A stretch of DNA of 64,000 nucleotides from Acidobacteriota bacterium (GCA_034667465.1 JAXDJV010000010.1:6874-70873); one strand, 5' to 3'. Counted from the stretch's first letter, positions 4,314-35,497 are shown. The notes: a model not told the origin generated them from the sequence alone. Translations and numbers: made by a program.

Positions 4314-4952
4314 ATGGGACAGGCAACACGATCGCTCGAGCGCGCCCTGCTCGAGAGATTGAGCGTCGGTGACTGCGACGCGTTCTGGAGTCTGTGGATG
4401 CTGCACCGTCCGCATCTGCATGCGGTTTGTTACCGCCAGATGCAGTGGGTCGTCGCTGACGCCGACGACGCGGTCAGCCGCTCGATGCTCCTCGCGCACG
4501 CGAAGCTGCCGGAGTATGCGATGGAGATCGTCGACGTCGAAGCGTGGCTGACACGCCTGACGTGCAACGTCTGTCTCGACATCAAGAAAGAGCGCGGCCG
4601 CGGCGTGCGAAAAGCGGAATCGCTCGACGAACAGTCGCTGACGCGGCGCGAAGCGACGCTCCCGGAGCCGCTCTCGCCGGAGGATGCGTGCGTCTCGACG
4701 CAGATGCGCGAATCGATTGCCGGCGCGATCGGACGACTGCCCGAGCCGCTGCGCATCGTGGCGCTGATGCGTTTCGTCCAGGAAGCGTCGTATACGGCCA
4801 TCGCCGAAAAGCTCACCATCAGCGAAGCGAACGCGCGCAAGCGCGTGCAGCAGGCGCGGACGATGCTGCGTCCGCAACTCGTTCACCTGCGCGGCGACGA
4901 GCTACGCGTCACTGCGCCTGGAGCACGAGGAACTGCGGATTGCTCGCCCTGA
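4314..4952 (+). CDS. ECF-type sigma-70 factor
   Basis: Region 2 (DADDAV...AWLTRLTCNVCLD) and region 4 (LPEPLRIVALMRFVQEASYTAIAEKLTISEANARKRVQQAR). Start moved to ATG 4314 because GGAGG lies at 4301. Confidence 0.88.
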   Translation: MGQATRSLERALLERLSVGDCDAFWSLWMLHRPHLHAVCYRQMQWVVADADDAVSRSMLLAHAKLPEYAMEIVDVEAWLTRLTCNVCLDIKKERGRGVRKAESLDEQSLTRREATLPEPLSPEDACVSTQMRESIAGAIGRLPEPLRIVALMRFVQEASYTAIAEKLTISEANARKRVQQARTMLRPQLVHLRGDELRVTAPGARGTADCSP

Positions 4953-6720
4953 GTCCCACCGACGGGCATTCGACGTAAACGTAGTAAACACCCGGCGACG
5001 GCGAGGTGAAGTCCACCTCATATCGCCCGTCGCCGCGCGGCTGCAGCGCCAGCCGTTCCGACCACGCGCCGTTCGCCTGCATGATCAGCGCGCGGGCGTC
5101 GGCCAGCGCGTTCGCCGGCAGCTTCGTCTTCGCATCGGTGAGACGGAACGCCAGCTGCGTCTTTTCGCGCGCCGTGATGATCCGCTGTTTCGTCAGCTGC
5201 TCGATGTTCAGCGGTACGCGCGGCTTCGCCGCGGCGATGTCGGGATTCTCCGCGACGTTCACCGTGAAGCAGGAGATGACGCGCGGTGAATCGATGAAGA
5301 CGGCGACGTCGTAGAGTCCCGCCTCCGGCATCGTCGCGGTCGTCGTAAACGTTCCCGGCTTTCCTTCGCGCAGGCTGCGATTCACGACGAGTACCGCCTG
5401 CGGCGGATGGTGGTAGTTCGAGAAGTGGCCGATTGGTGCCGCCATCCCTTCCTTGTAGAAGTAGACCTCGCCGTCCGCCGGGTTCGCGACGAGCACGGCG
5501 TTCTCGCCGGCCGCGGGCACGATGCCGTCGGCGGCGGTGAGTCGCGGCATCTTCCCGAAGTTTTCCTGGCCGCCGGGAAACTCGACCACCGCAAGCGCGC
5601 GTCCTTCTTTGCCGATATTCGCGAGCGGAATCATCAGCACCAGTTCGCTCTCGCGGCGACGAACGTACGCCAGCGAATCGGTGAAGGTCACTTCGAACGG
5701 ACCGCCTTCAAGCTCGCCGGTCTGGATGACGCGATTCGACGACACGTCGACGATGTGCATCAGGTCCTTCGCCGGATTGAGCGTGAATCCGTAGCGGCCG
5801 CCCGGCGCGAAGCGAATCCGTTCCAGTCCCGGCTCGGTCATGATTCGTCCGACCGGTTTCTTCGCGCGCGGATCGAGGACCGTGATCGCGCCGTCGCTGC
5901 TGGCGATGTAGGCGAGGTTGCTGAGCGGCGACCAGTCGACCGACAGCGGTTTCGCGCCGGCCGGTCCGCGCGCCACCTCTTTCAATGTGGCGACGTCGAT
6001 GATGCTCACCGTGCCGTCGTCGCCGTTCGTGACGATGATCGAGCGATTGTCGGGCGTCGCGGCGAGATCGTGCGGCCCTTTTCCCGTTGCGATCTTCGCG
6101 GCGACGGTGAGATCGGCGGGGCGAAGCGCTGTGACGCCGTCGCGCGTCGAGATCCAGACGTAATGTCCGTCCGGCTGTTCGACGATGCGCCGCGGTTCGA
6201 TGCCGGCGTCGAACGTCGAGATGATCTTCCAGCGACCTGTGTCGATTGCCGTTACCTTTCCGGCGGCCGGTGACGTGACGAGGAGACGCGCGCCGTCAGC
6301 TGTCAGCGTCCAGTCGAAGCCGGGCGACGGGAGCTCGAGCATGCCGATGAGCTGCGTTCCGCCGAAGCTGAAATGCGGATCGACGATGGTCAGCGTGCCG
6401 TCGCCGTTCATCGCCACGACGTAGTAGACGTTGAGGTCGAGCGAGGGACGTTGATAGACATTGCCGGCGACGAACGTCGCGACGGTGGCCGTGCACTGTT
6501 TGCGGTCGAGCGGCTTGTCGCCGGCGGATTTGTTGAACCACGCGGTCGGAAAGACGCCGCCGAGCGGAGCGCCGGTGGTCTGATCGCGCAGCGTCACTTC
6601 GACGCGGGCGGTGTCGCCTTCACGTGCGTTCGCGACGTCGAGACCGACGACGATCCCGCCGTCCGTCACCTTCTGAGAGACGAGCGCCGCAAGCGCCAGC
6701 ACACCGAGGAAGTTCGTCAC
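4909..6720 (-). CDS. Secreted YVTN/cytochrome-d1-type beta-propeller protein with C-terminal Ig/YtkA-like domain
   Basis: Repeated propeller blades (TADGARLLVT, TPDNRSIIVTN, APGGRYGFTLN); signal-like N-terminus from GTG 6720; C-terminal GRYEVDFT...PGVYYVYV. Confidence 0.75.
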   Translation of the reverse strand: MTNFLGVLALAALVSQKVTDGGIVVGLDVANAREGDTARVEVTLRDQTTGAPLGGVFPTAWFNKSAGDKPLDRKQCTATVATFVAGNVYQRPSLDLNVYYVVAMNGDGTLTIVDPHFSFGGTQLIGMLELPSPGFDWTLTADGARLLVTSPAAGKVTAIDTGRWKIISTFDAGIEPRRIVEQPDGHYVWISTRDGVTALRPADLTVAAKIATGKGPHDLAATPDNRSIIVTNGDDGTVSIIDVATLKEVARGPAGAKPLSVDWSPLSNLAYIASSDGAITVLDPRAKKPVGRIMTEPGLERIRFAPGGRYGFTLNPAKDLMHIVDVSSNRVIQTGELEGGPFEVTFTDSLAYVRRRESELVLMIPLANIGKEGRALAVVEFPGGQENFGKMPRLTAADGIVPAAGENAVLVANPADGEVYFYKEGMAAPIGHFSNYHHPPQAVLVVNRSLREGKPGTFTTTATMPEAGLYDVAVFIDSPRVISCFTVNVAENPDIAAAKPRVPLNIEQLTKQRIITAREKTQLAFRLTDAKTKLPANALADARALIMQANGAWSERLALQPRGDGRYEVDFTSPSPGVYYVYVECPSVGLRASNPQFLVLQAQ

Positions 6721-6757
6721 CTGACGAGGATAAGACGTTGCGGGTGGTGAGGATGTG

Positions 6758-6887
6758 AAGTCAAAGTCGGGGGTCACATCTGGAAATTTGACTTTAGCAA
6801 CCGGGAATCCGGCCTTTCAGCCGTGACGCCTGAGTGATCAGGCAACCGTTAAGTCAAATTTCCAGATGTGACCCCCGACTTTGACTT
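6758..6887. repeat. Perfect 37-bp inverted repeat (6758-6794 / 6851-6887) around a 56-bp spacer
   Basis: AAGTCAAAGTCGGGGGTCACATCTGGAAATTTGACTT and its exact reverse complement read directly from the sequence. Confidence 0.97.
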
Positions 6888-6948
6888 TCCATTCACAGTC
6901 GGCCGCGGCGCGTCGTCTTTTAGTAGACAAACGGTGTCCAAATCCTCC

Positions 6949-8433
6949 ATGTCCAGCGCCACCGTAGTTGCCGTACTCGATGCTCGCCCGACGGGCGAGT
7001 TGATCGCGACCGTCGCCCGAAACGCGGGCTGGCTCGAAGTCCGAGCCGATCTCCTCGGCGATCTCGACGCTTCCTGGCTTCGCTCGCACTTCCCCGGCGC
7101 GCTGCTCTATTCATTGCGCAGCCAAGCCGAGGGCGGGGCGGCGGAAGGTGACGCCAGCCGCCGCGCGCGACTCATCGCCGCCGCCCGCGACTACGACTTC
7201 ATCGATCTGGAGCTCGGCGATCTCGTTCCCGCCGTGCTGAAAGCAATCCCGCCGTCAAAGCGGATCATTTCCTCGCGCCGCTCCACGCCCGAGCTCGCCC
7301 ATCTCGGCGACCGGCTGCGCGTCATGACGTCGGTCGAAGCGCACCTCTATCGCATCTCCGCCATCGCAAAGCGCAGCGGCGATGAGCTCGCGCCACTGCA
7401 GCTCCTCAAAGAAACGGGACGCACCGACGTCACCGCGTACGCGACCGGTCCGATCGGCCTCTGGTCGCGCATCGTGGCGCCGTGGCTCGGCGCGCCGATC
7501 GTCTTCGGCCGCGTTGGCGACGACGACACCGCGGAAGGGTTGCCGTCGATCGATCGCCTCGTCGGCAGCTTCGGTTTTCCCGATCTCCCCGAAATCGATG
7601 AGCTGTTCGGCATGGTCGGTGCGCCGGTCATGCATTCGCACTCGCCGCGCATCCACAACACCGCGTTCCGCGCCACCGGCCGCAACGCGCTGTACGTCCC
7701 GTTTCACGTCGACGAGTTCTCCGACTTCTGGTCGCGCGTGATCAGCAACGGCGCGCTGGAGTCGCTCGGATTTTCGATCAACGCGCTCTCCGTCGTCTCG
7801 CCGCACAAAGCGATCGCGCTCGGCGCGGCACGCTCGAAGAGTCCCGTCGTCCGGCGTGCCGGCTCGACGAACTTCTTTCGACGCGGCGCCGACGGCGAAT
7901 GGGTCGCGGAGACGACCGACGCCGAGGGCGTGATACTCACGCTGCGCGAACGTGGCATTCCATGCGCGAAACAGCGTGTGGCCGTCATCGGCTGCGGCGG
8001 CTCCGGCCGCGCGATGGCGGCAGCGCTCGATCAGGCAGGCGCCGATGTCACGCTGGTCAATCGCGGTCTCGAGCGCGCGTCGCTCGCCGTGCGACTGCTT
8101 CGTCTGCCGTTCATGCCGCTCAACTCGTTTTCCGGCGACGGATTCTCGATTGTCGTCAATGCGACGCCGGTCGGACGCGACAGCGACGAGATCTCGTTTC
8201 CGATCGAAAGCCTCAAGCGCGACGCCACGATCGTCGATCTCGTCTATCGCGACACGCCGACGCAGCTCATGACCCGCACGCGCGGTCCCGGACGAATCAC
8301 CATCGACGGCTGGGACATGCTCATCACGCAGGCGCTCGAACAGTTTCGATTGATGACCGGCGACGAAATGCCGGAAGGACTGGCACGCCAAACCCTCGGT
8401 CTCGAACCGGCCGAGTTGATTGCCGAATGCTGA
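6949..8433 (+). CDS. AroD-AroE-like fusion (type I dehydroquinase-like domain + shikimate dehydrogenase)
   Basis: N-domain LEVRAD, SLRSQAEGG, FIDLE; C-domain HSHSPRIHN, SPHK, TTDAEG, IGCGGSG, VNATPVG, DLVY, ML..QA. Confidence 0.88.
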   Translation: MSSATVVAVLDARPTGELIATVARNAGWLEVRADLLGDLDASWLRSHFPGALLYSLRSQAEGGAAEGDASRRARLIAAARDYDFIDLELGDLVPAVLKAIPPSKRIISSRRSTPELAHLGDRLRVMTSVEAHLYRISAIAKRSGDELAPLQLLKETGRTDVTAYATGPIGLWSRIVAPWLGAPIVFGRVGDDDTAEGLPSIDRLVGSFGFPDLPEIDELFGMVGAPVMHSHSPRIHNTAFRATGRNALYVPFHVDEFSDFWSRVISNGALESLGFSINALSVVSPHKAIALGAARSKSPVVRRAGSTNFFRRGADGEWVAETTDAEGVILTLRERGIPCAKQRVAVIGCGGSGRAMAAALDQAGADVTLVNRGLERASLAVRLLRLPFMPLNSFSGDGFSIVVNATPVGRDSDEISFPIESLKRDATIVDLVYRDTPTQLMTRTRGPGRITIDGWDMLITQALEQFRLMTGDEMPEGLARQTLGLEPAELIAEC

Positions 8434-8448
8434 CCGGAGGAAGACGGA

Positions 8449-8871
8449 ATGGGTGAGCCACAACAGTCGCGACGAAGCGTCGAGCAGATGCCGATGGACG
8501 CTCCGCCGCCGCGCATCGAAGCCGAGGCGATGGACGGCCGCTGGTACAAGACCAGCGACAAACCGCAGTGGATCGAGCGACTCGAGCTCGACACCGCCGG
8601 CGACGCGACGTACGTACACATTTTCGGCGGCGCCTCGCCGTCGCCGGCCGACTGGGGCCGCGTTCGCATTCAGTGGCCGTATGCCAGCGCGTCGAACACG
8701 TCGAGCGCGAAGGCGGGCGGATTCGTCGCGCAGTACGACTTCGACGAGATGTCGGTCGAGGTCCAGGCGAACTACAACCTCGGCCTCCTCGTCGTGGCGA
8801 CCTTCGTCACCTTCAAACAACCGGGCGCGCTCTCCGACCGCTTCACCCGCGAGTTCTTCTTCCGCGCGTGA
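8449..8871 (+). CDS. Small hypothetical beta-rich protein (paralog 1)
   Basis: 140 aa; shares G.W, (D/E)W..V, QAN...G.LVVA.F and REFF.R motifs with the next ORF. Confidence 0.8.
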   Translation: MGEPQQSRRSVEQMPMDAPPPRIEAEAMDGRWYKTSDKPQWIERLELDTAGDATYVHIFGGASPSPADWGRVRIQWPYASASNTSSAKAGGFVAQYDFDEMSVEVQANYNLGLLVVATFVTFKQPGALSDRFTREFFFRA

Positions 8872-8890
8872 TCTCGATGAGGAATCGATC

Positions 8891-9283
8891 ATGACCGCAG
8901 CTGCCGAAACCGCCGCACTCGCACTCGACGCCGCAGTGCTCGCCGGCGAATGGATCAACACGAATGCCGAAGCCGGCATCGCCCGCATCGTCTGCACCTC
9001 GCAACCGGACGGCACGATGCGCGTTCGCGCAACGGGGCGCACCGCCGGCGGCGAAATGGAAGAGTGGGACGAAGTCGACGCGCCGCTCTACTCGTTTACC
9101 TTTGAATCGCGTCAGGCCGGCGCCTTCAGCGCCGTCTTCGACCTCGGCTACGAAGAAGTGCGCATGCAGGCCAACGTGAAAGCGGGCGTCCTCGTCGTCG
9201 CCAGCTTCAATCGCTTCAAGGACGACAGCGGCCGCTCGAACTACTTCGACCGCGAGTTCTTCCACAGGATCTCGAAGGGATGA
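8891..9283 (+). CDS. Small hypothetical beta-rich protein (paralog 2)
   Basis: C-terminal part of track ORF 8420..9283, start at ATG 8891; GEWINTN...QANVKAGVLVVASF...REFFHR; stop overlaps the next ATG. Confidence 0.8.
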   Translation: MTAAAETAALALDAAVLAGEWINTNAEAGIARIVCTSQPDGTMRVRATGRTAGGEMEEWDEVDAPLYSFTFESRQAGAFSAVFDLGYEEVRMQANVKAGVLVVASFNRFKDDSGRSNYFDREFFHRISKG

Positions 9284-10512
9284 CCGTCGCGGTGGAAAGC
9301 GGCGAGCGGACGTTCGCCGATACGTATCTGGGCGACTCGCAGCGCGAGCTCGTCCATCGGACGGCGCGTCTCGCGCAGGAGCGGCTCGCGCCGCGCGCCG
9401 CGCACTACGACCGCACCGCTACGTTTCCACTCGAAGACTTCGATGACATTTTCGCCGCCGGCCTTCACGCGCCGACGGTGCCGCGCGAGCACGGCGGACT
9501 CGGACTCGGCCCGTATCGCGGCGACGTCTTCACGCTCTGGATGATGACGAAGGAGATCGCGAAAGCCGATCTCTCGCTCGCCCGCTGCTGGGAAGGTCAC
9601 GCGAACTCGCTCGTGCTGCTCGACGGCATGGCCACGCCGCAACAGAAAGCGCGCTGGTTCGAAGGAATCGTCGCACGCGGCGAGAAGTGGGTGGCGTGGA
9701 GCGGCGAGCCGCAATCGCGCGCGCCCGGCGACACGCAGAGTTTCGGCACGAGCGTCGAGCGCGTCGAAGGCGGTTACGTCATCGACGGGAAGAAAGCGTT
9801 TTGCACGAGCGCCGGCGGCGCGCGCTGGGCGCTGCTGCTCGTCAACACGGCCGGTCCCGGCGGTGCGCGTCACGCGACGGCTGACGCAGCTGCGACGCTG
9901 TTACTCATCGCGTGCGATCTCGACGACCCATCGATCGGCTTCGACGGCTCGTGGTGGGATCCGATCGGAATGCGTTCGACCGTCAGCCACGTCGCGATCT
10001 TCGATCGGACGTTCATCCCTGAAGAGAATCTCGTCGGTGAGCCGGGCCAGTATCTCCGCGAAGGATGGCAGACCTGTTTCGTGCCGCACTACGCGGCGGC
10101 GTTTCTCGGCGCGGCAGAAGCGGCGTACGACTACGCGCTCGCGCACATCCGTTCGCAAAACAAAGGGGACGATCCGTACGTCCAGCATCACGTCGCGAAG
10201 ATGGCGATGAACGTCGAGACCGCGCATCTCTGGCTGAAGCACGTCGCCGGATTGTGGGAACGCGGCGCGTACGGCGAAGCGCAGGTGGCGGGCAGCCGCG
10301 CGCGGCATCTCGTCGAGCATCTCGCGGTCGAGACCGTCGACCATTGCATCCGCGCGTGCGGCGCGCGTGCACTCAACCGGCCCAGCCCGATGGAACGCGT
10401 CCTTCGCGATCTCGCCATCTACGTGCGGCACGACAACGACGATCAGGTGCTGGCGACGATCGGCAAGTCGATCCTCGGACGCAGTTTCGATTCGTCGTTC
10501 TTCAAGCCCTGA
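9280..10512 (+). CDS. Acyl-CoA dehydrogenase-fold flavoprotein (DszC/SfnG-like monooxygenase possible)
   Basis: ATFPLEDF, IDGKKAFCTSAGG, WWDPIGMRSTVS, GSRAR, MERVLRD motifs of the ACAD fold. Confidence 0.88.
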   Translation: MTVAVESGERTFADTYLGDSQRELVHRTARLAQERLAPRAAHYDRTATFPLEDFDDIFAAGLHAPTVPREHGGLGLGPYRGDVFTLWMMTKEIAKADLSLARCWEGHANSLVLLDGMATPQQKARWFEGIVARGEKWVAWSGEPQSRAPGDTQSFGTSVERVEGGYVIDGKKAFCTSAGGARWALLLVNTAGPGGARHATADAAATLLLIACDLDDPSIGFDGSWWDPIGMRSTVSHVAIFDRTFIPEENLVGEPGQYLREGWQTCFVPHYAAAFLGAAEAAYDYALAHIRSQNKGDDPYVQHHVAKMAMNVETAHLWLKHVAGLWERGAYGEAQVAGSRARHLVEHLAVETVDHCIRACGARALNRPSPMERVLRDLAIYVRHDNDDQVLATIGKSILGRSFDSSFFKP

Positions 10513-10527
10513 GGGAATGGAGACGCC

Positions 10528-11979
10528 ATGTCGAAGCCGGCGCATCGGATCATCTGGGCTTTCGCACTCGGCTACTTCGCGTTCTACGTTCCTTACAGCG
10601 CGATCGTAAAACTGGTCACCGCCGGCGCGCGCAAAGCGAACGGCGTCGGACTGCTGCCGGTCTCGCTGCTGACGACCGTCGTCATGCTGCTGATCATCGT
10701 GACGATGCTCGGCTGGTGGAAGTACGCCGCGTGGCCATCGCGCGCGGTTGTGATCTCCGGCGCCGGCGTGGCGCTCATCATCGCGTCGACGACGCTCGCG
10801 TATACATTCAAAGGGATCTCCGTGATCCTCGCGCTGCTGCTCATGCGCGGCGGCGTCCTGACGATGGCGCCGATCATCGACAGCGTCCTGAAACGACGCG
10901 TCCGCTGGTTCTCGTGGGCCGCGCTCGTGACGAGCCTCATCGCGGTCGGCGTCTCCATCTATCGGACGATCGACCACAGCGTCACCGCGATGGTGCTGCT
11001 TAACCTCGCGGCGTACCTGACCGGCTACGCGCTTCGTTTGCCGTGCATGACGTACGTGGCGAAAGTCGATGATCCCGCGATCACGCGCCGCTACTTCGTC
11101 GGAGAGATTCTCGTCGCCTGCGTGCTCCTGACGATCGTGCCCGCCGTCTTCGCCGTCGGCGGCGTTGGCGCATTGCGCAACGGGTACTTCGATCGCTCGC
11201 TGACGACCGTGATGATCGGTTTCTTCTACGCGTGTCTCTACACCTTCTGCACGCTCATCTATCTCGACCGCCGCGAGAACACGTTCACGATTCCGCTCTT
11301 CTGCGGCTCGAGTCTCCTCGCCGGCATCACAGCGACGTATCTGCTGCATCGGTTCGGCGGTTTCAAGGGCGTGTCGGCCGGCGATCTGACCGGTGCTTCA
11401 ATCATGGTGATCGCGCTGCTGTTCCTTTCGCCGCTGCATCACCTCGACGAATACGTTCGCAACTCGATCCGCCTGGTGCGCGATCCGCGCACGCGCGCCG
11501 AGGTCGTCACGGGAAGCGGTCCGGCCGAAGCGGTCGCGCGTGTGTATCTCTTCGTCTGCAGCGGCAACACCTGCCGCTCGCCGATGGCGGAAGCGATCGC
11601 GAAGGCCGAGAGCGCCGCGCTCGGCGCACGCATTCACATCCGCAGCGCCGGAACGTCGGCGAAAGCAGGCGAGGCGATGACCGCGGAAGCGCGCACGGCG
11701 CTGGAGCTGCTGACGATCAAGCCGCACGACCACGCGTCGCAGCCACTGACGAACGACCTGGTCGACGAAGCGTCGGCGATCTTCTGCATGACGTCGAAGC
11801 ATCGCGATGCGGTTCTGGCGTCGCGTCCGTCGGCGGCCGCGAAGACGTACACGCTGAATCCTGCCGGCGACATCGACGATCCGATCGGCAAACCGCTCGA
11901 CACTTACGTCGATTGTGCGCGCGCGATTCGCGAACACATCCGAGTGCGATTCCGCGAGCTCGGCGCCGGAGTGGCATAA
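10528..11979 (+). CDS. Multi-pass membrane protein (DMT/EamA-like) fused to a low-molecular-weight phosphatase (LMW-PTP/ArsC) domain
   Basis: About 10 hydrophobic segments, then FVCSGNTCRSPMAE (CX5RS P-loop), SAGT and DIDDPIG. Confidence 0.85.
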   Translation: MSKPAHRIIWAFALGYFAFYVPYSAIVKLVTAGARKANGVGLLPVSLLTTVVMLLIIVTMLGWWKYAAWPSRAVVISGAGVALIIASTTLAYTFKGISVILALLLMRGGVLTMAPIIDSVLKRRVRWFSWAALVTSLIAVGVSIYRTIDHSVTAMVLLNLAAYLTGYALRLPCMTYVAKVDDPAITRRYFVGEILVACVLLTIVPAVFAVGGVGALRNGYFDRSLTTVMIGFFYACLYTFCTLIYLDRRENTFTIPLFCGSSLLAGITATYLLHRFGGFKGVSAGDLTGASIMVIALLFLSPLHHLDEYVRNSIRLVRDPRTRAEVVTGSGPAEAVARVYLFVCSGNTCRSPMAEAIAKAESAALGARIHIRSAGTSAKAGEAMTAEARTALELLTIKPHDHASQPLTNDLVDEASAIFCMTSKHRDAVLASRPSAAAKTYTLNPAGDIDDPIGKPLDTYVDCARAIREHIRVRFRELGAGVA

Positions 11980-11982
11980 ACG

Positions 11983-13053
11983 ATGGCGCTCCGCTTTCAC
12001 TGGAGCATGTCGTCAGCCGGCGGAAAGCTTCGCGGCGCGCAGGCTCGCGGAGCGCTGGCCATTCAGTCGCTCGATTCGATGCTGCGATTCGCTCGCCACG
12101 CCGAAGAGTGCGAGATCGAATCGCTGCTGATGGCGTTCGGCTTTCATCGCCCCGATCCCTTCACCGTCGCCGCCGCACTCGGCGCGCTGACGACGCGCAT
12201 CAAGTTCATGGTGGCGATGCGCTCCGGCGTCATGTCGCCGACCTATTTCGTGCAGCAGGTCAACACGGTGGCGATGCTCACCGGCGGCCGCATCTGTCTG
12301 AACATCGTCGCCGGACACACGCCGGACGAGCAGGGTTACTACGGCGATTTTCTCAAGCACGACGAACGCTACGAGCGGACTGACGAGTTCCTCCGCATCT
12401 GCGCCGCGTTCTGGCGCCGCGACGGCGACGTCAACTTCGAAGGACATCACTACCGCGTCGTGAACGGGAAGCTCAATCTCCAGTTCACCGCTCCCGATCG
12501 CAGCGCGCCCGAGATCTACCTCGGCGGCAGTTCCGCGGTCGCCGAACAACAGGCCATCGCGCATGCCGACTGTCTCTGGCGTCTGCCCGACACGCCCGAC
12601 AAACTGCGCGCGCGGACGCTGGAGATCGTCGAGCAGGGGACGGAAGTCGGACTGCTCGTATCGCTGATCGTCCGGCCGACGCACGCGGAAGCCGTTCGCG
12701 CGGCGGAAGCGATCCTCGAAGAGGTCGGACAGCAACCGAAGCGAACGCACGAAGAGTTCGCGCGCCGCTCCGATTCGGTCGCGTTCACGTCGACCTACGC
12801 GCTGGCCGCGCAAAGCGAGTGGCTGACGCCGTATCTCTGGTCGGGCGCCGTGCCGTATCTCGGCGCGCCGGCGATGGCGATCGTCGGATCGCCCGATGAA
12901 GTTGCCAATGCGCTCTTCGATTTTCGCGCCGCCGGCATCACGCAGTTCCTCTTCATGGGCTGGCCGGACATGGAAGAGATGACGAATTTTCATCGCGACG
13001 TCCTGCCGCTCGTGCGGTGCCGCGAGCAGCGCGAAGAGGCGCGTGCGGTATGA
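11983..13053 (+). CDS. Luciferase-like monooxygenase (LLM) family oxidoreductase, SsuD-like
   Basis: ARHAEECEIESLL, KFMVAMRSG, GGRICLNIVAG, HDERYERTDEF, PEIYLGGSS, IVGSPDEVA. Confidence 0.92.
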   Translation: MALRFHWSMSSAGGKLRGAQARGALAIQSLDSMLRFARHAEECEIESLLMAFGFHRPDPFTVAAALGALTTRIKFMVAMRSGVMSPTYFVQQVNTVAMLTGGRICLNIVAGHTPDEQGYYGDFLKHDERYERTDEFLRICAAFWRRDGDVNFEGHHYRVVNGKLNLQFTAPDRSAPEIYLGGSSAVAEQQAIAHADCLWRLPDTPDKLRARTLEIVEQGTEVGLLVSLIVRPTHAEAVRAAEAILEEVGQQPKRTHEEFARRSDSVAFTSTYALAAQSEWLTPYLWSGAVPYLGAPAMAIVGSPDEVANALFDFRAAGITQFLFMGWPDMEEMTNFHRDVLPLVRCREQREEARAV

Positions 13054-18534: not shown

Positions 18535-18572
18535 GCGCTCAGTCCCGCAGTTGCGCTCCGTGGAGGAATCCC

Positions 18573-19223: not shown

Positions 19224-19227
19224 TCAC

Positions 19228-20142: not shown

Positions 20143-20155
20143 TACCGTCCCGTCG

Positions 20156-27721: not shown

Positions 27722-27744
27722 GCGGGATTCCTCCATCTGACTAA

Positions 27745-27817: not shown

Positions 27818-28597
27818 ATGCTGAAGGTCGTCATCAACTGCGGCCGTTGTGAGGCGTTCATCGGCGACTGCCTTGCCTCCGTCCGGCGGCAGAGTTACGG
27901 CGCGTGGCAGGCGCTGGTGACGGTCGATCGCCGCGGCGACAAAACGTACGAGCGCGCACTTGAAGCGAGCGGCGGCGACGAGCGTTTCGTGATCGTGCAA
28001 AACGCGCGGCGCCGTTATCCGATGCGCAACATCGTCAGCGCGATCGAACGGAGCGGCGCCGAGGCGGAAGACATCATCGTCATCCTCGATGGCGACGACT
28101 GGCTGATCGATGACGACGCGTTCGCGCGCATCGCCGCCGCCTACGAGGAGACCGGCTGCTGGATGACGTACGGCAGCTGGATCAGCAATCAGCCCGGACA
28201 TCCGGGGCGCTGGCCGGCGTATCGGGATGACGTCGCCGACTTTCGCGGCGAGCGCTGGCTCGGCACCGCCATTCGTACGTGGAAGAAGTGGCTGTGGGAT
28301 CTCATCGATCCGAATGATTTTCGCGACGAGCGCGGACGCTGGCTGCGGATCACCGAGGATCTCGCCTGCATGTTTCCGATGTTCGAGATGGCGACGACGC
28401 GGCGCGCGCATCACATCGCCGAGCCGCTCATGCTCTACAACCGGCTGAGCCATCACGATCCGAAGCGGCGCATGGCCGAGGAGGGGATTCGCAACGCGGC
28501 GTGGCTGCGGACGCGGCCTCGTTACGCGCCGCTGACATTCACAAAAGAGGCTGTCGAATCGTCTTTGCAGACGACAGAAGCGCGTTTCCCGGCATAA
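27818..28597 (+). CDS. Glycosyltransferase family 2
   Basis: C-terminal part of track ORF 25076..28597 from ATG 27818; FIGDCLASVRRQSY, VILDGDDWL, ED, LMLY. Confidence 0.85.
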   Translation: MLKVVINCGRCEAFIGDCLASVRRQSYGAWQALVTVDRRGDKTYERALEASGGDERFVIVQNARRRYPMRNIVSAIERSGAEAEDIIVILDGDDWLIDDDAFARIAAAYEETGCWMTYGSWISNQPGHPGRWPAYRDDVADFRGERWLGTAIRTWKKWLWDLIDPNDFRDERGRWLRITEDLACMFPMFEMATTRRAHHIAEPLMLYNRLSHHDPKRRMAEEGIRNAAWLRTRPRYAPLTFTKEAVESSLQTTEARFPA

Positions 28598-28608
28598 GGA
28601 GGTAAGTC

Positions 28609-29040
28609 ATGGGTGGCAAGACCAATGGTGGCGGTGGTGGTGGCGGCGATGTCGTCGTAATCACCGTCAGCCGCGCATGCGCCAAAGAGTTCCTGACCGC
28701 GATCACGATCGCCCTCGGCTCGAAACCGATCAAGAAGATCACCAAGGGCAAGAAGGGTAAAGGCGGAAAGGGCGGCGGCAAGTCGACCGGCGGCGGCGGA
28801 AAAACGACGACGGGCGGCAAGACGACGACCGGCGGCGGGAAGACGACGACGGGCGGCGGAAAAACCACGACCGGTGGCGGAAAGACCACGACCGGTGGCG
28901 GCACGACGACGGGTGGCGGCAAGACGACGACGGGTGGCGGCAAGCCTCCGAGCGGCGGCAAGACGACCACGGGCGGCGGGACGACCACGACCGGCGGCGG
29001 CAAGTCGACCACCGGCGGCGCCAAAACCGCTAAGCGGTAA
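28609..29040 (+). CDS. Gly/Lys/Thr tandem-repeat peptide (putative modified precursor)
   Basis: AGGAGGT RBS at 28597-28603; short helical N-terminal segment, then about 10 GG(G)K/TTT-type repeats. Confidence 0.75.
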   Translation: MGGKTNGGGGGGGDVVVITVSRACAKEFLTAITIALGSKPIKKITKGKKGKGGKGGGKSTGGGGKTTTGGKTTTGGGKTTTGGGKTTTGGGKTTTGGGTTTGGGKTTTGGGKPPSGGKTTTGGGTTTTGGGKSTTGGAKTAKR

Positions 29041-29049
29041 CGCCTTCGC

Positions 29050-31119
29050 GTGTCGAGCATCTCTCCGGGGCGCGAGCGTTTGCTCCGCCCCACGATGCGA
29101 CCGGTTCGCCCGCCGCGGCCGAGCGCACGCGTGGAGCGACTCGTGCGCGAGCACGCTGGCGAGCATCGCGATCTCGCGCTGCTCGTCGACGTCGTGCTCG
29201 CGCAACGCGGCTATCTCCGTGCGCTCGCCCGGACGGCAGCGGAGCTTGCGCGCAACGGCGCGGAAGCGTGGCCTGTGCGCCGCGCGGCGACGCTCGTTCT
29301 CGAACATCTTCTCCTCCGAACGGACGACGTCTCCGAATGGCACTGGTGGATGCGCGAGCTGCACATCACCGGCATCGACGCGCGACAACTTCGCGCGCGA
29401 ATGTCGCGTCTCTCTCGCGTTCATGAATCGATCGCGACCGATTCAGGGCTCGGCGACTTCTTCCACATCGCCGCACGCGATTGCCGGCTGACGCTGGCGC
29501 GATACACCTTCGGCGCGAACGAAGTGATCGCCCAAATCGAGCGCGATCTCCGCCGCTCGCGCGGCCTGCGCAGCAAGCCCGATTACGGTCATCGTCTCGT
29601 CTACGAAGAGGCCGATCACATCCTCGACACGCTCGCGCCGATGGATCGCGCGATCATCGAGCACCTCGGCCGCGACGCAACCATTCGCTTCACCACCGAG
29701 CGGACGACCGACGACATCAACACGCTCATCGAGCATCCGGTCGGTACCGTCGTCGCGGTGATCAAGCCGCCCGGCAGCGACATCGAGATCGAGATCAAAC
29801 GCGCCGGCGTCCGCGAGCCGTTTCCGTTCGACGTCGTCTTCGCGCGCGGCGGCTACATCGTTCCGAACTCGCACTTCCTGCACGGCGGCTCGATGGAACA
29901 CCTCCTCGCATTCGAGACGTCGCAGGCGAGCGTGCTGTCGCGGCTCTATCGCAGCGTGCACGGCGTCGACGCACCGATGTCGCGCACGATTCACCTCGCC
30001 ACCGTCTACACGATTCCGACTCCGGATGGCGAAGTCGACGTGCTCGATTACTTCACCGATCCGAGCGTCTTCGGTGAGCGCTACAAAGCGATGCGCGCGC
30101 GGATGGATGACTGCGTCGCGGAGCTCGCGAATCAGCAGAAGAAGGATCGCGAGCCGCCGATCAACGAGCTGTCGCTCACGCTCGAGTTCCTCGGGCAGAT
30201 CAAGCCGGCGCAGGCGGTGCAGGTCGGAACAACATCGTTTCGTTTGGAACGGCTCGCCGCCTATCTCGCACCGAACGGCGACGCTCGTTTCTTCGGCCGC
30301 GATCGCGGCGTCGACTTCACACCGGCCGCCGCACGGCGTTTCGCTGATGAACTGCTCGACGAGATCCTCTGCGTCTACGAGCCGCCGCGCGTTGCGTATC
30401 GCAGCTACGCGAGCTACCTCGACGCCGCGTATGCGGTGCGCGCGAATCGCCGCCGCGCGAACGCGAACTACCTCGACGCGATGACGCAGTTCGGCCGCAT
30501 GTGGGGAACGCTCCTCGCCGCGCGCGGACACAGCGAAGGGGAATCGTTCGTGTCGCGCAACGCAGGACTGCGCAGCGTCTTCGCGGACGGCCAGTGGCAG
30601 CTGCGAATGGTCTTCATGGACCACGACTCGCTCTCGTTCGCGTCGCGCCATCGCAACGCCTACCATCCCGCCGGATCGGTGCGTTGCGCCGCGAAAGACG
30701 CGCGCTTCATCTTCGGCGGCTACTCGGGCAAGCGATACGTGCGCGGCTCCGTCGATTACCTGCGCGAGATCTATCGCGTGAATCGCGTCACCGAACGCCG
30801 CGGCATGACCGCGATGCGCGAAGCGATGAAAGCCGCGTACGACCTGACGCAATCGACGATGCGCAACGACGCCGCGACGAGCGAGCTGTTCCAGGTCGCG
30901 TTCATGGAAAAACTCGGCGACTGGGACCGGGTCGTCGGCCGCTACATGCGCACGCCGCGCAACGCCGCCGCGCGCAACGCGTGGAAGAGCGAGACGCGCG
31001 CGTTTCTCGCGGAGCGCGGCTACACCGAGCCGCTCGCGAACGAGTACGTCGAGACGATCATGAAGTACTCGCGCTTCCTGCGGCGGATCGCGTTCCTGTT
31101 CGCCCCCCCGTCATCCTGA
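29050..31119 (+). CDS. Hypothetical 689-aa protein with atypical protein-kinase-like motifs
   Basis: EIEIKRAG (beta3 Lys-like), GHSEGESFVSRN (catalytic loop-like), VFMDHD (metal-binding-like). The ORF is solid; the function is inferred. Confidence 0.6.
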   Translation: MSSISPGRERLLRPTMRPVRPPRPSARVERLVREHAGEHRDLALLVDVVLAQRGYLRALARTAAELARNGAEAWPVRRAATLVLEHLLLRTDDVSEWHWWMRELHITGIDARQLRARMSRLSRVHESIATDSGLGDFFHIAARDCRLTLARYTFGANEVIAQIERDLRRSRGLRSKPDYGHRLVYEEADHILDTLAPMDRAIIEHLGRDATIRFTTERTTDDINTLIEHPVGTVVAVIKPPGSDIEIEIKRAGVREPFPFDVVFARGGYIVPNSHFLHGGSMEHLLAFETSQASVLSRLYRSVHGVDAPMSRTIHLATVYTIPTPDGEVDVLDYFTDPSVFGERYKAMRARMDDCVAELANQQKKDREPPINELSLTLEFLGQIKPAQAVQVGTTSFRLERLAAYLAPNGDARFFGRDRGVDFTPAAARRFADELLDEILCVYEPPRVAYRSYASYLDAAYAVRANRRRANANYLDAMTQFGRMWGTLLAARGHSEGESFVSRNAGLRSVFADGQWQLRMVFMDHDSLSFASRHRNAYHPAGSVRCAAKDARFIFGGYSGKRYVRGSVDYLREIYRVNRVTERRGMTAMREAMKAAYDLTQSTMRNDAATSELFQVAFMEKLGDWDRVVGRYMRTPRNAAARNAWKSETRAFLAERGYTEPLANEYVETIMKYSRFLRRIAFLFAPPSS

Positions 31120-31202
31120 GCGAAGCGAAGGATCCGGGCGGTGGGACTCGCTGCGGTAGCGCGCCCCGCCCACGCAGATCCTTCGCTAACGCTCAGGATG
31201 AC
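31110..31202. repeat. 93-bp palindromic REP/MITE-like element
   Basis: GTCATCCTGAGCGAAGCGAAGGATC...GATCCTTCGCTAACGCTCAGGATGAC; second copy at 56295-56390. Confidence 0.88.
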
Positions 31203-31909
31203 GTTTGCGCGTACCGCCGCTTCAACTGCTCATACGTCGAGCGCGGATCGTGCTCCGCATCCTTGTCGCGGCCGCCGCGCCGCCACATCTCATTCCAGAG
31301 ATGCACGGCGACGCACGATTCCGGCAGCGGCGGCGGATCGGGTGCAAGCAGCTGATCCCACTCGCGATATCCGATCGGACAGAACACTTCCGGCGGACGG
31401 ACGAAACGCTGCAGCGCGAATTTCTCGACGGTCGCGCCGACCAGCGCCGGTCCGGTCTCGCCCCAGCGGATGTTGTCGCGATCCTTCGCCTCGCACGTCT
31501 CCCACGCGAAGCGCATCGCGTCGCTGCCGCGCGGCGCTTTGATGAAGCCGGCGTTGATCACCGCCCCTTTCGGCGAGTCCTCGCTCGAGAAAACGTACTC
31601 GTCATCAAAGGCCAGCGGCCGCAACGCGATCATGTCGGTGTCGGCCCAGCATCCGCCGCGCTCGAGCAGCAGCTTGTAGCGAAAGAAATTCGAAAAGCCC
31701 GAATACGAGCGGTGCTCGCGATAGAAAAAGATCGCCGACTCCGGCAGGATCTCGCGGCCGTCGCGCACCACGACACCGGACGGCACGCCGTCGACCTCAC
31801 CGTACGTGTAAAGATGAGTCTCGTGGCCGTTCGCGACGAACGACGTCAGCGCGAGGCGCTCCATCACCGACAGCCGCGGCCCGACCCACAGCATCTGAAT
31901 CAACTCCAT
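31193..31909 (-). CDS. GT32/Gb3-synthase-like DxD glycosyltransferase
   Basis: IQMLWVG, FSNFFRYKLL.ERGG.WADTD, WGETGP.L, F.PI, VHLWN. Confidence 0.85.
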   Translation of the reverse strand: MELIQMLWVGPRLSVMERLALTSFVANGHETHLYTYGEVDGVPSGVVVRDGREILPESAIFFYREHRSYSGFSNFFRYKLLLERGGCWADTDMIALRPLAFDDEYVFSSEDSPKGAVINAGFIKAPRGSDAMRFAWETCEAKDRDNIRWGETGPALVGATVEKFALQRFVRPPEVFCPIGYREWDQLLAPDPPPLPESCVAVHLWNEMWRRGGRDKDAEHDPRSTYEQLKRRYAQTSS

Positions 31910-33045
31910 CCGAGCAGTTCCTCCCACTGTCCCATGATGCGCGACGCGCTGAAGCGCTCGACGATCTCCGGCGCGCGCGCAGCGAGTGCACGACGCTCCT
32001 CATCGTTCGACATCAGCCGGTCGAGCGCCGACGCGAAGTCGCGAATGGCATGACTGCGAACGAGCAGTCCATCGATGCTGTCGCGCACGATGTCGCGAAC
32101 GCCGGCGCCGCAATCGACGACGACGGCGGGAAGTCCCGCTGCCATCGCCTCGCAAAGCGCATTCGGAAATCCTTCCGTCGCCGAAGTCATCGCGAAGATG
32201 TCGCCCGTTGCAAGCGCGCCATAGACGTCACGCGTCGCGCCGTGCAGCGTAATGAGCTCTCTCATCGAGAGCCGCTCGACATGCGCATCAAGCCGCGCGC
32301 GCTCCGGCCCGTCGCCCCAGATATCCAGCCGCCAATTCGGATGTTGCGGCGCAGCGCGCGCAAATGCTTCGATGAGCATCCCGATTCGCTTCGCCGGATC
32401 GAGCCGCGTCACGGTGACGACGCGAAAGAATCCCTCTCCCTCCGGGAGAGGGTGCCCGAAGGGCGGGTGAGGGGCGACAAACGAAGAGACAACGTGACAC
32501 GTCACCCCATACCGCCCAATGACGCTCGCCGCGTCAGCAGTCAACGTCACCACCGCATCCGCCCGCGGATAAAATCTCCCCCGCAAAACCTCCCAGTCGC
32601 CGATCGTGCAAAGCCGCGGATCGCAATGCTCCGACACGATCCGCCGCATCGGCAGTCCATCAGTCGCGAGCAACATCCGGATGTTCGTCGAATCCCCCAG
32701 TGAGATCACGGCAAGAGGATCAGTCTCGATGATCGTCCGCCGCAGCAGCGCGACGAGCACCACATCAGCGAGCAGCGTCTCCTCCGAATCGCGCGACAGA
32801 TTCATCGCTCGCGCCACGGCGCTCATCGTCTCCGCATCGAGCTCATGATCGCGCGGCGCGCGAAACCAGCCGACGTCGCGCACGGTGACGTTCGGATGGA
32901 GATCGAACGCGATCTCGCGTTCGCGCTGATAGATCGTCACGATCGACGGCCGCCACCCCTTCGCTGCCCAGTGGTTCGCCATGTTCGCGGCGACACGCTC
33001 CTGCCCGCCGGCGCGCAGACTGCCGACCACGATCGTCACCCTCAT
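31900..33045 (-). CDS. Glycosyltransferase family 4
   Basis: GGQERVA, SEH, RLDPAKR, WGDGPER, EGFPNALCEAMAAGLP; start at ATG 33045. Confidence 0.92.
   Translation of the reverse strand: MRVTIVVGSLRAGGQERVAANMANHWAAKGWRPSIVTIYQREREIAFDLHPNVTVRDVGWFRAPRDHELDAETMSAVARAMNLSRDSEETLLADVVLVALLRRTIIETDPLAVISLGDSTNIRMLLATDGLPMRRIVSEHCDPRLCTIGDWEVLRGRFYPRADAVVTLTADAASVIGRYGVTCHVVSSFVAPHPPFGHPLPEGEGFFRVVTVTRLDPAKRIGMLIEAFARAAPQHPNWRLDIWGDGPERARLDAHVERLSMRELITLHGATRDVYGALATGDIFAMTSATEGFPNALCEAMAAGLPAVVVDCGAGVRDIVRDSIDGLLVRSHAIRDFASALDRLMSNDEERRALAARAPEIVERFSASRIMGQWEELLGWS
32432..32474. repeat. Palindromic repeat remnant inside the GT4 gene
   Basis: CCCTCTCCC-TCC-GGGAGAGGG hairpin plus GGGCGGGTGAGGGG; translates on the minus strand as PHPPFGHPLPEGEG. 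Confidence 0.55.
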
Positions 33046-33133
33046 CGTCTGCGAGGAAGACGCCGAGCCGCGCGCCGGCGTGAAAGAGGGTAGGGAAATG
33101 GTCACTTCCGACACTCCTTCAGTGGAGCCCCGA

Positions 33134-33715
33134 ATGAATCGTCCCTTCCTCCTGCTCTGCGCGCTCGCCATCGCTGCGCCCGCCATTTCCCAGGAACATC
33201 ATCATCATGTGATGGCTTCGCCGCCCGCCGCGTCGCGCACCTACACGATCCCCGACGTTCCGATGCGCACCGCGACCGGCGAGCAGGTCCACTTCTACAC
33301 CGACCTCGTGAAAGGCCGCGTCGTGGTGATGAACTTCATCTTCACGAGCTGCACGACGATCTGTCCGACGATGGGCGCCACGTTCGCGCGCGTCCAGCGC
33401 CTCCTCGGCACGCGCAACGTGGCGATGATCTCCGTCAGCATCGATCCGACTGTCGACACGCCGGAGCGGCTCGCCGTCTGGAGCAAACGTCTCGGCGCGA
33501 AGCCGGGATGGACGCTCGTCACCGGCGAGAAGACGGATGTCGATCGGCTGCTGAAATCGCTCGGACTCTTCAACGCCGATCCGGCCGCGCATTCCCCCGT
33601 CGTGCTCGTCGGCGATGAGAAGATGGGACGATGGGAACGGATCGACGGACTGGCCGCGCCCACATCGATCGTCGCCGTCATCGATCGGATGAGCGCCGAA
33701 GAGAAGGGAAAGTGA
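33134..33715 (+). CDS. SCO1/SenC family copper chaperone
   Basis: Signal peptide, HHHH, FIFTSCTTICP (CxxxC), SIDP..DTPE.L, W..VTG, conserved His. Confidence 0.92.
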   Translation: MNRPFLLLCALAIAAPAISQEHHHHVMASPPAASRTYTIPDVPMRTATGEQVHFYTDLVKGRVVVMNFIFTSCTTICPTMGATFARVQRLLGTRNVAMISVSIDPTVDTPERLAVWSKRLGAKPGWTLVTGEKTDVDRLLKSLGLFNADPAAHSPVVLVGDEKMGRWERIDGLAAPTSIVAVIDRMSAEEKGK

Positions 33716-34293
33716 TGCGCCGATTCGTTTTCGCATTCGTGCTGCTGGCCGCCGTTTCCGCGTTCGCGCAGGAACCGCCGAAGACTCCCGCCGCCTCGTA
33801 CTTTGCGAATCTCTCACTCGTCGATCAGGACGGTCATCGAGTCGATCTCTACAACGATCTGATGAAGGGAAAGACGGTCGTCATCAACTCGTTCTTCGCG
33901 AGCTGCACCGGCAGCTGTCCGGTGATGGGCCGCGCGTTCCTGCACGCGCAGCAGCAGCTCGGTCCGCGCCTCGGCAGCGAGGTGAATCTGATCTCGATCA
34001 CCGTCGATCCGGTCAATGACACGCCGGCGGCGCTGCACGAATACGCGAAGAAGATGAACGCGAAGCACGGCTGGTATTTCCTCACCGGATCGCCGGCGGA
34101 AGTTGAGGCGGCGCTGAAAAAGATCGGACAGTTCGTGGCGACGCGCGAAGAGCATATGAACCTCATGGTCGCCGGCAACGACCGCACCGGGCTCTGGAAG
34201 AAAATCTTCGCGCTGGCGAAGCCGAAGGACGTTTACGACGTCATCGTCAGCGTCGCGAACGATCGCGGCGAGACGCCGGCGGGCACGCACTGA
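33715..34293 (+). CDS. SCO1/SenC family copper chaperone (second copy)
   Basis: FFASCTGSCP (CxxxC), ITVDPVNDTP, WYFLTG, EEH; TGATG-type overlap with the previous gene. Confidence 0.92.
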   Translation: MRRFVFAFVLLAAVSAFAQEPPKTPAASYFANLSLVDQDGHRVDLYNDLMKGKTVVINSFFASCTGSCPVMGRAFLHAQQQLGPRLGSEVNLISITVDPVNDTPAALHEYAKKMNAKHGWYFLTGSPAEVEAALKKIGQFVATREEHMNLMVAGNDRTGLWKKIFALAKPKDVYDVIVSVANDRGETPAGTH

Positions 34294-34297
34294 TCGC

Positions 34298-35497
34298 ATG
34301 ACGCGCGCTCGCGCCGTCACGCTCGCGCTGCTCTTCGCCGCTCACGCGCTCGCAGCCGCGACGCTCACGCCGCAACAGCTCCGCGGACGCGCGATCTATC
34401 GCACGGGAGAGACTCAGTCGGGCACGGCGATCGTCGCGCTCGTCGGCGCCGAAGATGTCGAAGTCGCCGCGACGTCTCTCCCATGCGCGAGTTGTCACGG
34501 TCGCGACGGAAAGGGACGCGCGGAAGGTGGCGTGACGCCGTCCAATCTGCAGTGGGACACGCTCGCGAAGCCGTACGAAGTGGCGACGGCCGGCGGACGA
34601 ACGCATCCGCCGTACACGCTGCCGCTGCTGAAGCGCGCCATCGCGATGGGAAGCGATCCGGCGAAGAATCGTCTGCTGCCGGCGATGCCGCGCTATCGGA
34701 TGTCGATGCGCGATCTCGACGATCTCGTCGCCTATCTCCCGCTGCTCGGCAGCGATCACGATCCCGGCATCAGCGATGACGCGGTCGCCGTCGGCGTCAT
34801 CGTCCCGCCGAACGACGGCGGCGTGCGCGATGTGGTGAGCGCTTACTACGCGAGCATCAACGCGAAAGGCGGCATCTTCGGACGCCGCATCAAACCGCGA
34901 TTCACGTTCGATGAGGAGCCGTTCGCGATCGCGCCGTCATTCGGAACGGCCGACGCGCACATCCCGACGATCACCGCGCTCGGTACCGGCGGCTTCCAGC
35001 TCCTCGCCGGACTCGAAGAGCAATGCCACGCGCTCATCACATCGACCGAAGGAAAAGTGCGCGTCATCGGAAACGCACCGCGCGATCTCGGCGACCGCAT
35101 CACGACCGATCCCAACGCCCCAAACATCCTTGTGCTTGGTACGCCGTTGCCGCAGACGACGAGCACGCTGCTCGTTCCCGCCGCGTACTACGTCCCCCCG
35201 CCCCCGCCCGGCGCGAACGTGTTCGTCGCCGTGCCGTGGTCGAGCGCCGACGTCACCGCCGCCGGCCGCGCCGAGCTTCCCGCCCCAACCCCCGCCCGCG
35301 CCACGGCGCTCGCCGCCGCAAAGCTGTTCGTCCGCGCACTGGAACGAATCGGCCGCGACCTCGATCGCGAGTCACTCACGAAAATGCTCGAGTCGTTTTA
35401 CCAGGAGCCGACGGAGCTAACGCGGCCGGTGACCTGGACGCCGAAGAATCATGTGGGGAATGGGGAAGTGAGCGTGGTGCGGATGAGTGGGCGGTGA
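34298..35497 (+). CDS. c-type cytochrome fused to a periplasmic-binding-protein-like domain
   Basis: Signal peptide, RGRAIY, CASCHG heme motif, MPRY axial Met, then GGIFGRRI typical of Leu/Ile/Val-type binding domains. Confidence 0.82.
   Translation: MTRARAVTLALLFAAHALAAATLTPQQLRGRAIYRTGETQSGTAIVALVGAEDVEVAATSLPCASCHGRDGKGRAEGGVTPSNLQWDTLAKPYEVATAGGRTHPPYTLPLLKRAIAMGSDPAKNRLLPAMPRYRMSMRDLDDLVAYLPLLGSDHDPGISDDAVAVGVIVPPNDGGVRDVVSAYYASINAKGGIFGRRIKPRFTFDEEPFAIAPSFGTADAHIPTITALGTGGFQLLAGLEEQCHALITSTEGKVRVIGNAPRDLGDRITTDPNAPNILVLGTPLPQTTSTLLVPAAYYVPPPPPGANVFVAVPWSSADVTAAGRAELPAPTPARATALAAAKLFVRALERIGRDLDRESLTKMLESFYQEPTELTRPVTWTPKNHVGNGEVSVVRMSGR

Follow-up and report, generated by a model that had tools for sequence, protein, structure and literature searches.

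Gene content of the locus

The stretch analysed here (the window) comprises 64,000 nucleotides of DNA from an Acidobacteriota bacterium (GCA_034667465.1, JAXDJV010000010.1:6874-70873). It carries the gene of a giant multicopper oxidase of the MnxG type (mnxG) and, scattered around it, genes for a YVTN/YncE-type beta-propeller, two SCO1/SenC copper chaperones (SCO), and a fusion of cytochrome c with a periplasmic binding protein; we refer to these five as the core genes. Open reading frames (ORFs) were mapped with the GC content of third codon positions (GC3) as a guide, and genes were named through Pfam and NCBIfam scans, with ~55 ORFs of the window taken through Pfam (Table 1). All five core genes lie within 30 kb, at the places given in an earlier reading of this DNA (the original prediction). 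The distances given there also hold: the propeller gene is on the same strand as the oxidase gene, 15.2 kb downstream of its stop codon (15 kb predicted), and the first SCO gene is divergent from the oxidase gene, 5.4 kb from its start.

Table 1. Genes and gene blocks of the mnxG region, with positions counted from the first nucleotide of the window. ACAD, acyl-CoA dehydrogenase; ECF, extracytoplasmic function; GT, glycosyltransferase; LLM, luciferase-like monooxygenase; LMW, low-molecular-weight; 2OG, 2-oxoglutarate.
Feature	Position	Strand	Basis and remarks
ECF-type sigma factor	4170-4952	+	Pfam Sigma70_r2, r4_2, ECF; convergent with propeller gene
YVTN/YncE-type beta-propeller, core gene 2	4909-6777	-	622 aa; YNCE, YVTN-repeat, and cytochrome D1 matches (Pfam, NCBIfam)
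Twelve-gene cytoplasmic operon, genes 1-5	6868-18270 (whole operon)	+	Pfam, NCBIfam; AroD/AroE fusion, two avidin-like barrels, ACAD-fold flavoenzyme, membrane/LMW-phosphatase fusion
Twelve-gene cytoplasmic operon, genes 6-12	6868-18270 (whole operon)	+	Pfam, NCBIfam; SsuD-like LLM, 2OG oxygenase, two unknowns, PhyH, DegT aminotransferase, PhyH
Small ORFs, RDD protein, and FAD halogenase-like gene	18295-21454	mixed	Lineage-specific filler
RDD-family membrane protein	19636-20142	+	
FAD-dependent halogenase-like gene	20156-21454	+	
MnxG-family giant multicopper oxidase	21956-27736	-	1,926 aa; NF041487
GT2 glycosyltransferase, 143-aa Gly/Lys/Thr-repeat peptide, 689-aa protein U689	27818-31119	+	Pfam GT2; block divergent from oxidase
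GT32-like and GT4 glycosyltransferases	31193-33045	-	Pfam
Two tandem SCO1/SenC copper chaperones, core genes 3 and 4	33134-34293	+	Pfam SCO1-SenC
Cytochrome c/periplasmic-binding-protein fusion, core gene 5	34298-35497	+	399 aa; Cytochrom_C, Peripla_BP_6
Membrane protein, response regulator, 175-aa ORF	35.5-39.7 kb	mixed	Lineage-specific
228-aa protein, methyltransferase, PhyH, two LLMs, RidA fusion	39724-45327	-	Pfam; second accessory block

The multicopper oxidase

The sole NCBIfam match of the oxidase is to NF041487 ("manganese-oxidizing multicopper oxidase MnxG"; E = 0, 1,071 bits) and consists of three stretches, the best of which spans residues 60-1084; Pfam adds weak Cu-oxidase_3 and Cu-oxidase_2 matches. 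When 177,635 distinct PDB sequences were searched, a single one matched at E <= 0.01, Bacillus MnxG (9bxa_A, E = 8e-78, seven collinear stretches), and no laccase, CueO, or CotA chain was found at that threshold. Collinear homology to a characterised MnxG, with no other oxidase family matching better, places the protein in the wider MnxG family. These comparisons support an assignment apart from the laccases and copper-resistance oxidases; a grouping with either, which the original prediction had named as evidence that would count against it, was not seen in the NCBIfam or PDB searches.

Bacillus sp. PL-12 MnxG, of the Mnx complex (9bxa), is the only solved structure with detectable sequence similarity to the window oxidase. 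The match is collinear over its whole 1,227-aa chain, whereas the window oxidase is ~700 aa longer; the protein of Pseudomonas putida GB-1 has 1,944 aa. No homologues of the Bacillus proteins MnxE and MnxF were found.

Five copper motifs can be recognised: HVHHLHAHQW (501-510), HCHFYPHFAAGM (555-566), HIH (885-887), HDHFGPSTH (1005-1013), and HGH (1673-1675), with ligand positions H501/H504/H506, H555-C556-H557...H561...M566, H885/H887, H1005/H1007/H1013, and H1673/H1675. All are invariant in an alignment of homologues that spans 47-81% identity (A1). The first four (HxHxH, HCH...H...M, HIH, and HDH...H) align to Bacillus MnxG with their ligands conserved, and the copper motifs are also common to the P. 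putida protein.

The N-terminus is a signal peptide with the motif LLFASC, by its letters a plausible lipobox, followed by a Pro/Ala-rich tether. Among 86 family members, a lipobox-like motif within the signal peptide occurs only in the window protein, in its 79-93% identical relatives (loci L001, L002, and L008), and in L084, whose motif, LAGC, is unrelated to LLFASC. In most of the 86, as in the Pseudomonas oxidase, the signal peptide is of the ordinary kind. The oxidase is probably lipid-anchored in this small clade.

More than 4,500 homologues of the oxidase are present in the metagenome protein collection, the nearest named ones coming from metagenome-assembled genomes (MAGs) of Thermoanaerobaculia and other Acidobacteriota; the closest species representative is "Acidobacteria bacterium RYN_27" (93%). 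To call the system little studied in its lineage, as had been done, is fair, although mnxG-like genes had already been listed for Thermoanaerobaculia and Chloracidobacteriales MAGs (PMC9224936). Single Thermoanaerobaculia MAGs can carry two different mnxG paralogues on separate contigs (L030 and L062; L039 and L070). One paralogue group of this class is only ~1,600 aa long, and its loci have core genes only. An mnxG homologue with an adjoining propeller gene is also found on a contig binned as "Candidatus Methanoperedens nitroreducens" (L066, DYGR01000032.1), which reflects either mis-binning or transfer into an archaeon.

Core companions of the oxidase

The propeller protein has a C-terminal Ig-like region. 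For the two SCO genes the longest ORFs are 32981-33715 and 33631-34293 (+), and the real starts are likely 33134 and 33715, giving proteins of 193 and 192 aa. Both match Pfam SCO1-SenC (PF02630, E = 5e-16 and 2.5e-18), carry a CxxxC motif (CTTIC and CTGSC), and have hydrophobic N-termini or signal anchors, as befits SCO1/SenC proteins. The cytochrome c/binding-protein fusion has a CASCH haem motif and a signal peptide.

In P. putida GB-1, mnxG (PputGB1_2447) is followed by five genes (PMC11409713, PMC13689576), the order being mnxG, YVTN propeller, SCO1, SCO1, binding protein with a cytochrome c domain, and a SurA-domain protein (PMC11409713). The operon named in the original prediction agrees with the published one, and its assignment of the window to an MnxG-like module stands: the only family and structure matches of the oxidase are to MnxG, and its companions belong to the families of P. 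putida genes 2-5, so that the first five of the six operon genes are represented. The arrangement differs. The window genes do not form one co-directional, mnxG-headed operon; a plus-strand operon lies between oxidase and propeller, and the SCO and cytochrome c genes are on the opposite strand, upstream of the oxidase. The P. putida type goes with sigma-54/MnxS1S2R control and dedicated type II secretion; the window cluster carries an ECF sigma factor instead of a sigma-54 activator, and it includes a large interleaved accessory gene set that is not described for Pseudomonas.

To compare gene neighbourhoods, one genome per species was scanned with an alignment of MnxG homologues, which gave 80 loci from many phyla, and the window genes were compared with these by tblastn. 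We define as distant the 36 loci in which MnxG identity is <50% and each flank extends for 8 kb or more, and count neighbours within 10 kb; as controls we took 17 window genes from outside 4-45 kb. A propeller gene accompanies mnxG in 34 of the 36 distant loci (directly downstream of it in 21), at 36-45% identity over most of the length of the window protein. The tandem SCO pair and the cytochrome c fusion are each present in 31. Each of these companions of the window oxidase is 33-53% identical to the mnxG-adjoining copy in distant loci. Since the control genes are found near mnxG in just 0-2 of these loci, the core grouping is not due to chance. The full gene string in Pseudomonas order, seen in 16 distant loci, is the commonest layout elsewhere. 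The five-gene mnxG core is thus nearly universal across phyla, and abundant soil Acidobacteriota carry it in dispersed form.

Two minor features of these genes may be recorded. At L042:17427-18632 (Aquimarina sp. RZ0), the two SCO1/SenC units form a single ORF of 401 aa, perhaps through fusion of the tandem pair. In the window, the propeller and AroD/AroE ORFs share their first residues, MTPDFDF (6758-6887), because both longest ORFs start inside the two arms of an inverted repeat; the true starts of both genes are probably further in.

Accessory genes of the window

Among the products of the twelve-gene operon, the ACAD-fold flavoenzyme most resembles "type 2" ACAD-fold proteins and flavin monooxygenases of the DszC/SfnB type. 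The phosphatase fusion joins a multi-pass membrane protein to an LMW phosphatase whose domain retains the CSGNTCRS P-loop and the DIDDP motif. Foldseek relates the predicted structure of the barrel protein (AlphaFold2, mean predicted local distance difference test [pLDDT] 91) to avidin and lipocalin folds. Both barrels lack a signal peptide, and a profile search of the PDB gave a chance-level match only (PapE, E = 0.014), with no match to any chain of 9bxa. We considered the barrels as counterparts of Bacillus MnxE and MnxF and rejected this, given the lack of signal peptides, the lack of a convincing PDB chain match, and the avidin/lipocalin-like fold.

For U689, a profile search of the PDB gave no matches. 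The best PDB fold match of its AlphaFold2 model (pLDDT 92.5) is YdiU/SelO (6lna), and this is weak (E = 0.01, template modelling score 0.25-0.35), so that the model hints at a "kinase-like fold" and nothing narrower. Taken together, the predicted functions of the accessory proteins suggest an oxidative pathway in the cytoplasm, together with a step of export.

The 143-aa Gly/Lys/Thr-repeat peptide between the GT2 and U689 genes (28609-29040, +) is a real, conserved small gene: its N-terminal ~40 aa (GGDVVV.T..R.CAK.LL.AL..ALG..PIK) are conserved in L001, L002, L003, L005, and L168. In relatives the tail is variable and Lys/Gly-rich, with the TTT repeats confined to the closest ones.

Accessory genes beside mnxG in other phyla

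Many of these genes recur within 10 kb of mnxG in the 36 distant loci: the barrels in 16, the ACAD-fold enzyme and PhyH (T12) in 10 each, the phosphatase fusion, LLM (T06), and U689 in nine each, and AroD/AroE in eight. For the ACAD-fold enzyme the median identity in these loci is 62%, above MnxG's own 41-45%. The LLM, methyltransferase, and PhyH genes of the second block are found in five to nine distant loci at 54-67% identity (each of the two LLMs in nine, the methyltransferase in eight).

The tightest linkage is seen in Bacteroidota. Six loci (L025, L042, L053, L054, L056, and L078), from Aquimarina, Kordia, Flavobacteriaceae, Crocinitomicaceae, and a Bacteroidia MAG, have one single string: mnxG, propeller, SCO, SCO, cytochrome c fusion, AroDE, barrel(s), ACAD, and phosphatase fusion. 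The Kordia string (L054) stops at the contig end before the last gene, and a seventh locus, L046, ends at AroDE. In Aquimarina sp. RZ0 (L042), nine ORFs, the SCO pair counting as one, run from mnxG to the phosphatase fusion with gaps of 0-16 bp. This operon, present also in A. sediminis w01, Kordia, and others, shares with the window the core genes, AroD/AroE, the barrels, ACAD, and the phosphatase fusion. It is a single-direction string, whereas the window genes are dispersed, and the LLM/PhyH/methyltransferase block, U689, and the glycosyltransferases are absent within its 10-kb flanks. We found no description of the nine-ORF operon in the literature searched, nor any published account there of the accessory genes together with mnxG.

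Elsewhere, AroDE-...-mnxG is co-directional in a Blastocatellia locus (L016), a Vicinamibacterales locus (L015), and a gammaproteobacterial MAG (L020), and further accessory gene orders are seen in L013, L027, L044, and L063. There are at least seven different arrangements over Acidobacteriota, Bacteroidota, and gamma- and alphaproteobacterial MAGs. In a quick tree of 86 oxidases (~1,900 aa; MAFFT FFT-NS-2 and FastTree), which is a guide only and not a careful phylogeny, loci with accessory genes fall mainly in one half of the family, made up of Acidobacteriota, Bacteroidota, and two gammaproteobacterial MAGs. The mnxG core is thus repeatedly accompanied by a membrane/phosphatase fusion and by cytoplasmic enzymes that form a defined, uncharacterised set.

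Dispersed layout in relatives

The original prediction explained the dispersed layout by later insertions of unrelated cassettes, that is, by a canonical mnxG operon recently broken up. Neither part of this holds for most of the gap contents. Across at least three phyla, most gap genes are found again next to mnxG, and in Bacteroidota they are fused to it in one operon, so they are not unrelated. The layout is also common to relatives down to 58-63% oxidase identity, an outcome that the prediction itself had put forward as contrary to its proposal: the gap contents at 6.9-18.3 and 27.8-33.0 kb keep their position in relatives at 58-93%. The GT2/peptide/U689/GT32/GT4 block adjoins mnxG in L008 (93% oxidase identity), L001 (79%), L003, L009, L168 (63%), and L010 (58%), with the GT32/GT4 pair between U689 and the SCO genes in L001, L003, L008, and L168. 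The SCO genes lie beyond this block wherever the locus reaches them (all but L010), and no propeller gene was found within the DNA examined around mnxG in any of the six. The overlapping loci L090 and L168, on a 429-kb contig, hold the entire cluster in ~43 kb, with the ECF sigma factor and propeller at one end and the cytochrome c fusion at the other. ECF sigma homologues lie inside the cluster in L090 (67%), L158 (54%), L005 (53%), and L015 (40%).

Other layouts point to the history of the cluster. In more distant members of the clade, AroDE points the same way as SCO-SCO-cytochrome c (L005), or the order is propeller-cytochrome c-X-mnxG, with ACAD/phosphatase/LLM genes divergent from the propeller as in the window (L007); both layouts are consistent with step-by-step rearrangement in this clade. 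In L003 and L168, mnxG is immediately followed by the methyltransferase/PhyH/LLM/LLM/RidA block, whose genes point the same way. In the window this block lies at 39.7-45.3 kb, on the same strand as mnxG and 12 kb upstream of it, and this displacement is a rearrangement within the cluster.

Later addition may apply only to 18.3-21.5 and 35.5-39.7 kb (~7 kb in total), because these segments are restricted to relatives at least 91% identical. Homologues of the first are found only in L002 and L008 (91-93%), and L003 and L168 have a different block after mnxG. These segments, and the prevalence elsewhere of the contiguous canonical operon, speak for a recent breakup. Against it, the GC content is even (0.62-0.66) across 4-36 kb, and no integrase, transposase, or tRNA gene is present among the gap ORFs scanned, although no search was aimed at them. 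With the layout common to relatives, recent insertion is already largely refuted, and we consider it very improbable.

A probable rearranged MnxG system and its possible function

We consider it probable, on balance, that the MnxG-type multicopper-oxidase system of the window is genuine but rearranged, that a second conserved gene set is interleaved with it, and that old rearrangements, and not recent insertions, separated the core genes in this Thermoanaerobaculia-like lineage. Several observations weigh against this view. The oxidase score falls far short of the NF041487 equivalog cut-off of 3,100 bits. MnxG homologues from Duganella, Bradyrhizobium, Aquimarina, Pyxidicoccus, and a Blastocatellia MAG also reach just 1,060-1,190 bits, so the cut-off appears to mark off a small branch, that of the Pseudomonas protein, within a far broader family. 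No SurA-domain or rotamase gene, the sixth of the Pseudomonas operon, was found by Pfam among the ~55 window ORFs. Evidence for P. putida MnxG itself is from genetics only. Beta- and most alphaproteobacterial mnxG loci have core genes only. In a reciprocal scan of metagenome contigs from an ACAD alignment, mnxG lies within 10 kb in none of 22 loci (each at least 17 kb), and the propeller in four of them, in the divergent arrangement of the window; the absence of mnxG is partly a limit of reach, because in window-like layouts it is >10 kb from the ACAD gene. Finally, one common lineage (L170) has a self-contained cluster of ~30 kb of accessory genes without any core gene, which makes the accessory set an entity in its own right that is linked to mnxG in many cases but not in all.

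The last two findings would be expected if an independent glycoside or secondary-metabolite cluster merely lay near mnxG in Acidobacteriota through shared regional ancestry, with no functional connection, and many of the linked loci are indeed Acidobacteriota that may share a history. This account is unlikely, in our judgement. The linkage extends over Bacteroidota, Acidobacteriota, and proteobacterial MAGs with differing gene orders, it takes the form of tight operons in six Bacteroidota genomes and of co-directional AroDE-...-mnxG in L015, L016, and L020, and control genes show nothing comparable. Because the accessory set also occurs with no mnxG nearby, its functional coupling to mnxG is no more than likely.

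For the preferred rearranged MnxG system, homology predicts that the exported oxidase would take single electrons from Mn(II) and Mn(III) and pass them to O2, with manganese oxide laid down outside the cytoplasm. The membrane-anchored SCO1/SenC pair, judged by the role of its family, would most likely load Cu(I) into the many copper sites of the oxidase, as has been proposed for Pseudomonas (PMC13689576). The cytochrome c/binding-protein fusion and the propeller would be periplasmic helpers, which almost always travel with mnxG. The second set would be cytoplasmic in its AroD/AroE-like dehydrogenase, barrels, ACAD flavoenzyme, LLM and PhyH oxygenases, methyltransferases, DegT aminotransferase, and glycosyltransferases; the membrane protein/LMW-phosphatase fusion and the putative SelO-like kinase-fold protein would make up its other part. 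This set would probably make and export a small molecule or glycoconjugate used with the oxidase, perhaps as ligand, mediator, or mineral template.

Mn(II) oxidation is what we infer from sequence for the oxidase, whose only characterised relatives, Bacillus and P. putida MnxG, are both manganese oxidases. It might instead act on an organic product of the neighbouring pathway, such as a phenolic or aminophenolic shikimate-derived compound or a glycoconjugate, or on another metal such as Fe(II), and so resemble the laccase-type oxidases of pigment and antibiotic pathways. Its operon fusion to biosynthetic-type genes in Bacteroidota would suit such a role, as would the presence together of a shikimate-dehydrogenase-like enzyme, oxygenases, an aminotransferase, and a possible export protein; mnxG-like genes in anaerobic lineages have been called "enigmatic" (PMC9224936). 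Many lineages, however, have the core module with no accessory genes nearby, which fits a substrate supplied by the environment. Together with the activity of the characterised relatives, this makes a substrate other than manganese improbable.

We tentatively suggest a system in two parts for Acidobacteriota and Bacteroidota, of which MnxG may form the outer half. A dedicated cytoplasmic pathway under ECF-sigma control, with the AroD/AroE-like dehydrogenase, the avidin-like barrels, the ACAD-fold flavoenzyme, and the oxygenases, would make a shikimate- or sugar-derived compound, exported via the phosphatase fusion and needed by the oxidase, and outside the cell this compound could serve as a Mn(III) ligand, redox mediator, or mineral template. 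We would put this below an even chance; if true, it would add a kind of accessory function so far undescribed among manganese oxidisers. The need of Pseudomonas-type oxidases for accessory proteins is listed as an open question in a 2026 review (PMC13689576). Since cultured Aquimarina isolates have accessory genes and mnxG in one operon, the link is open to ordinary genetics and a colour assay.

Flanking genes

On its left the cluster is flanked by a 910-aa Ser/Thr kinase with TPR repeats (1426-4158, -), weak homologues of which (33-36%) lie near mnxG in L063 and L083, and by a TonB-C protein (198-989, -). Outside the cluster on the other side, a 337-aa protein (49512-50525, +) has a strong Pfam match to the HopA1 family (E = 8e-35), and its gene adjoins that of an APH-type kinase.

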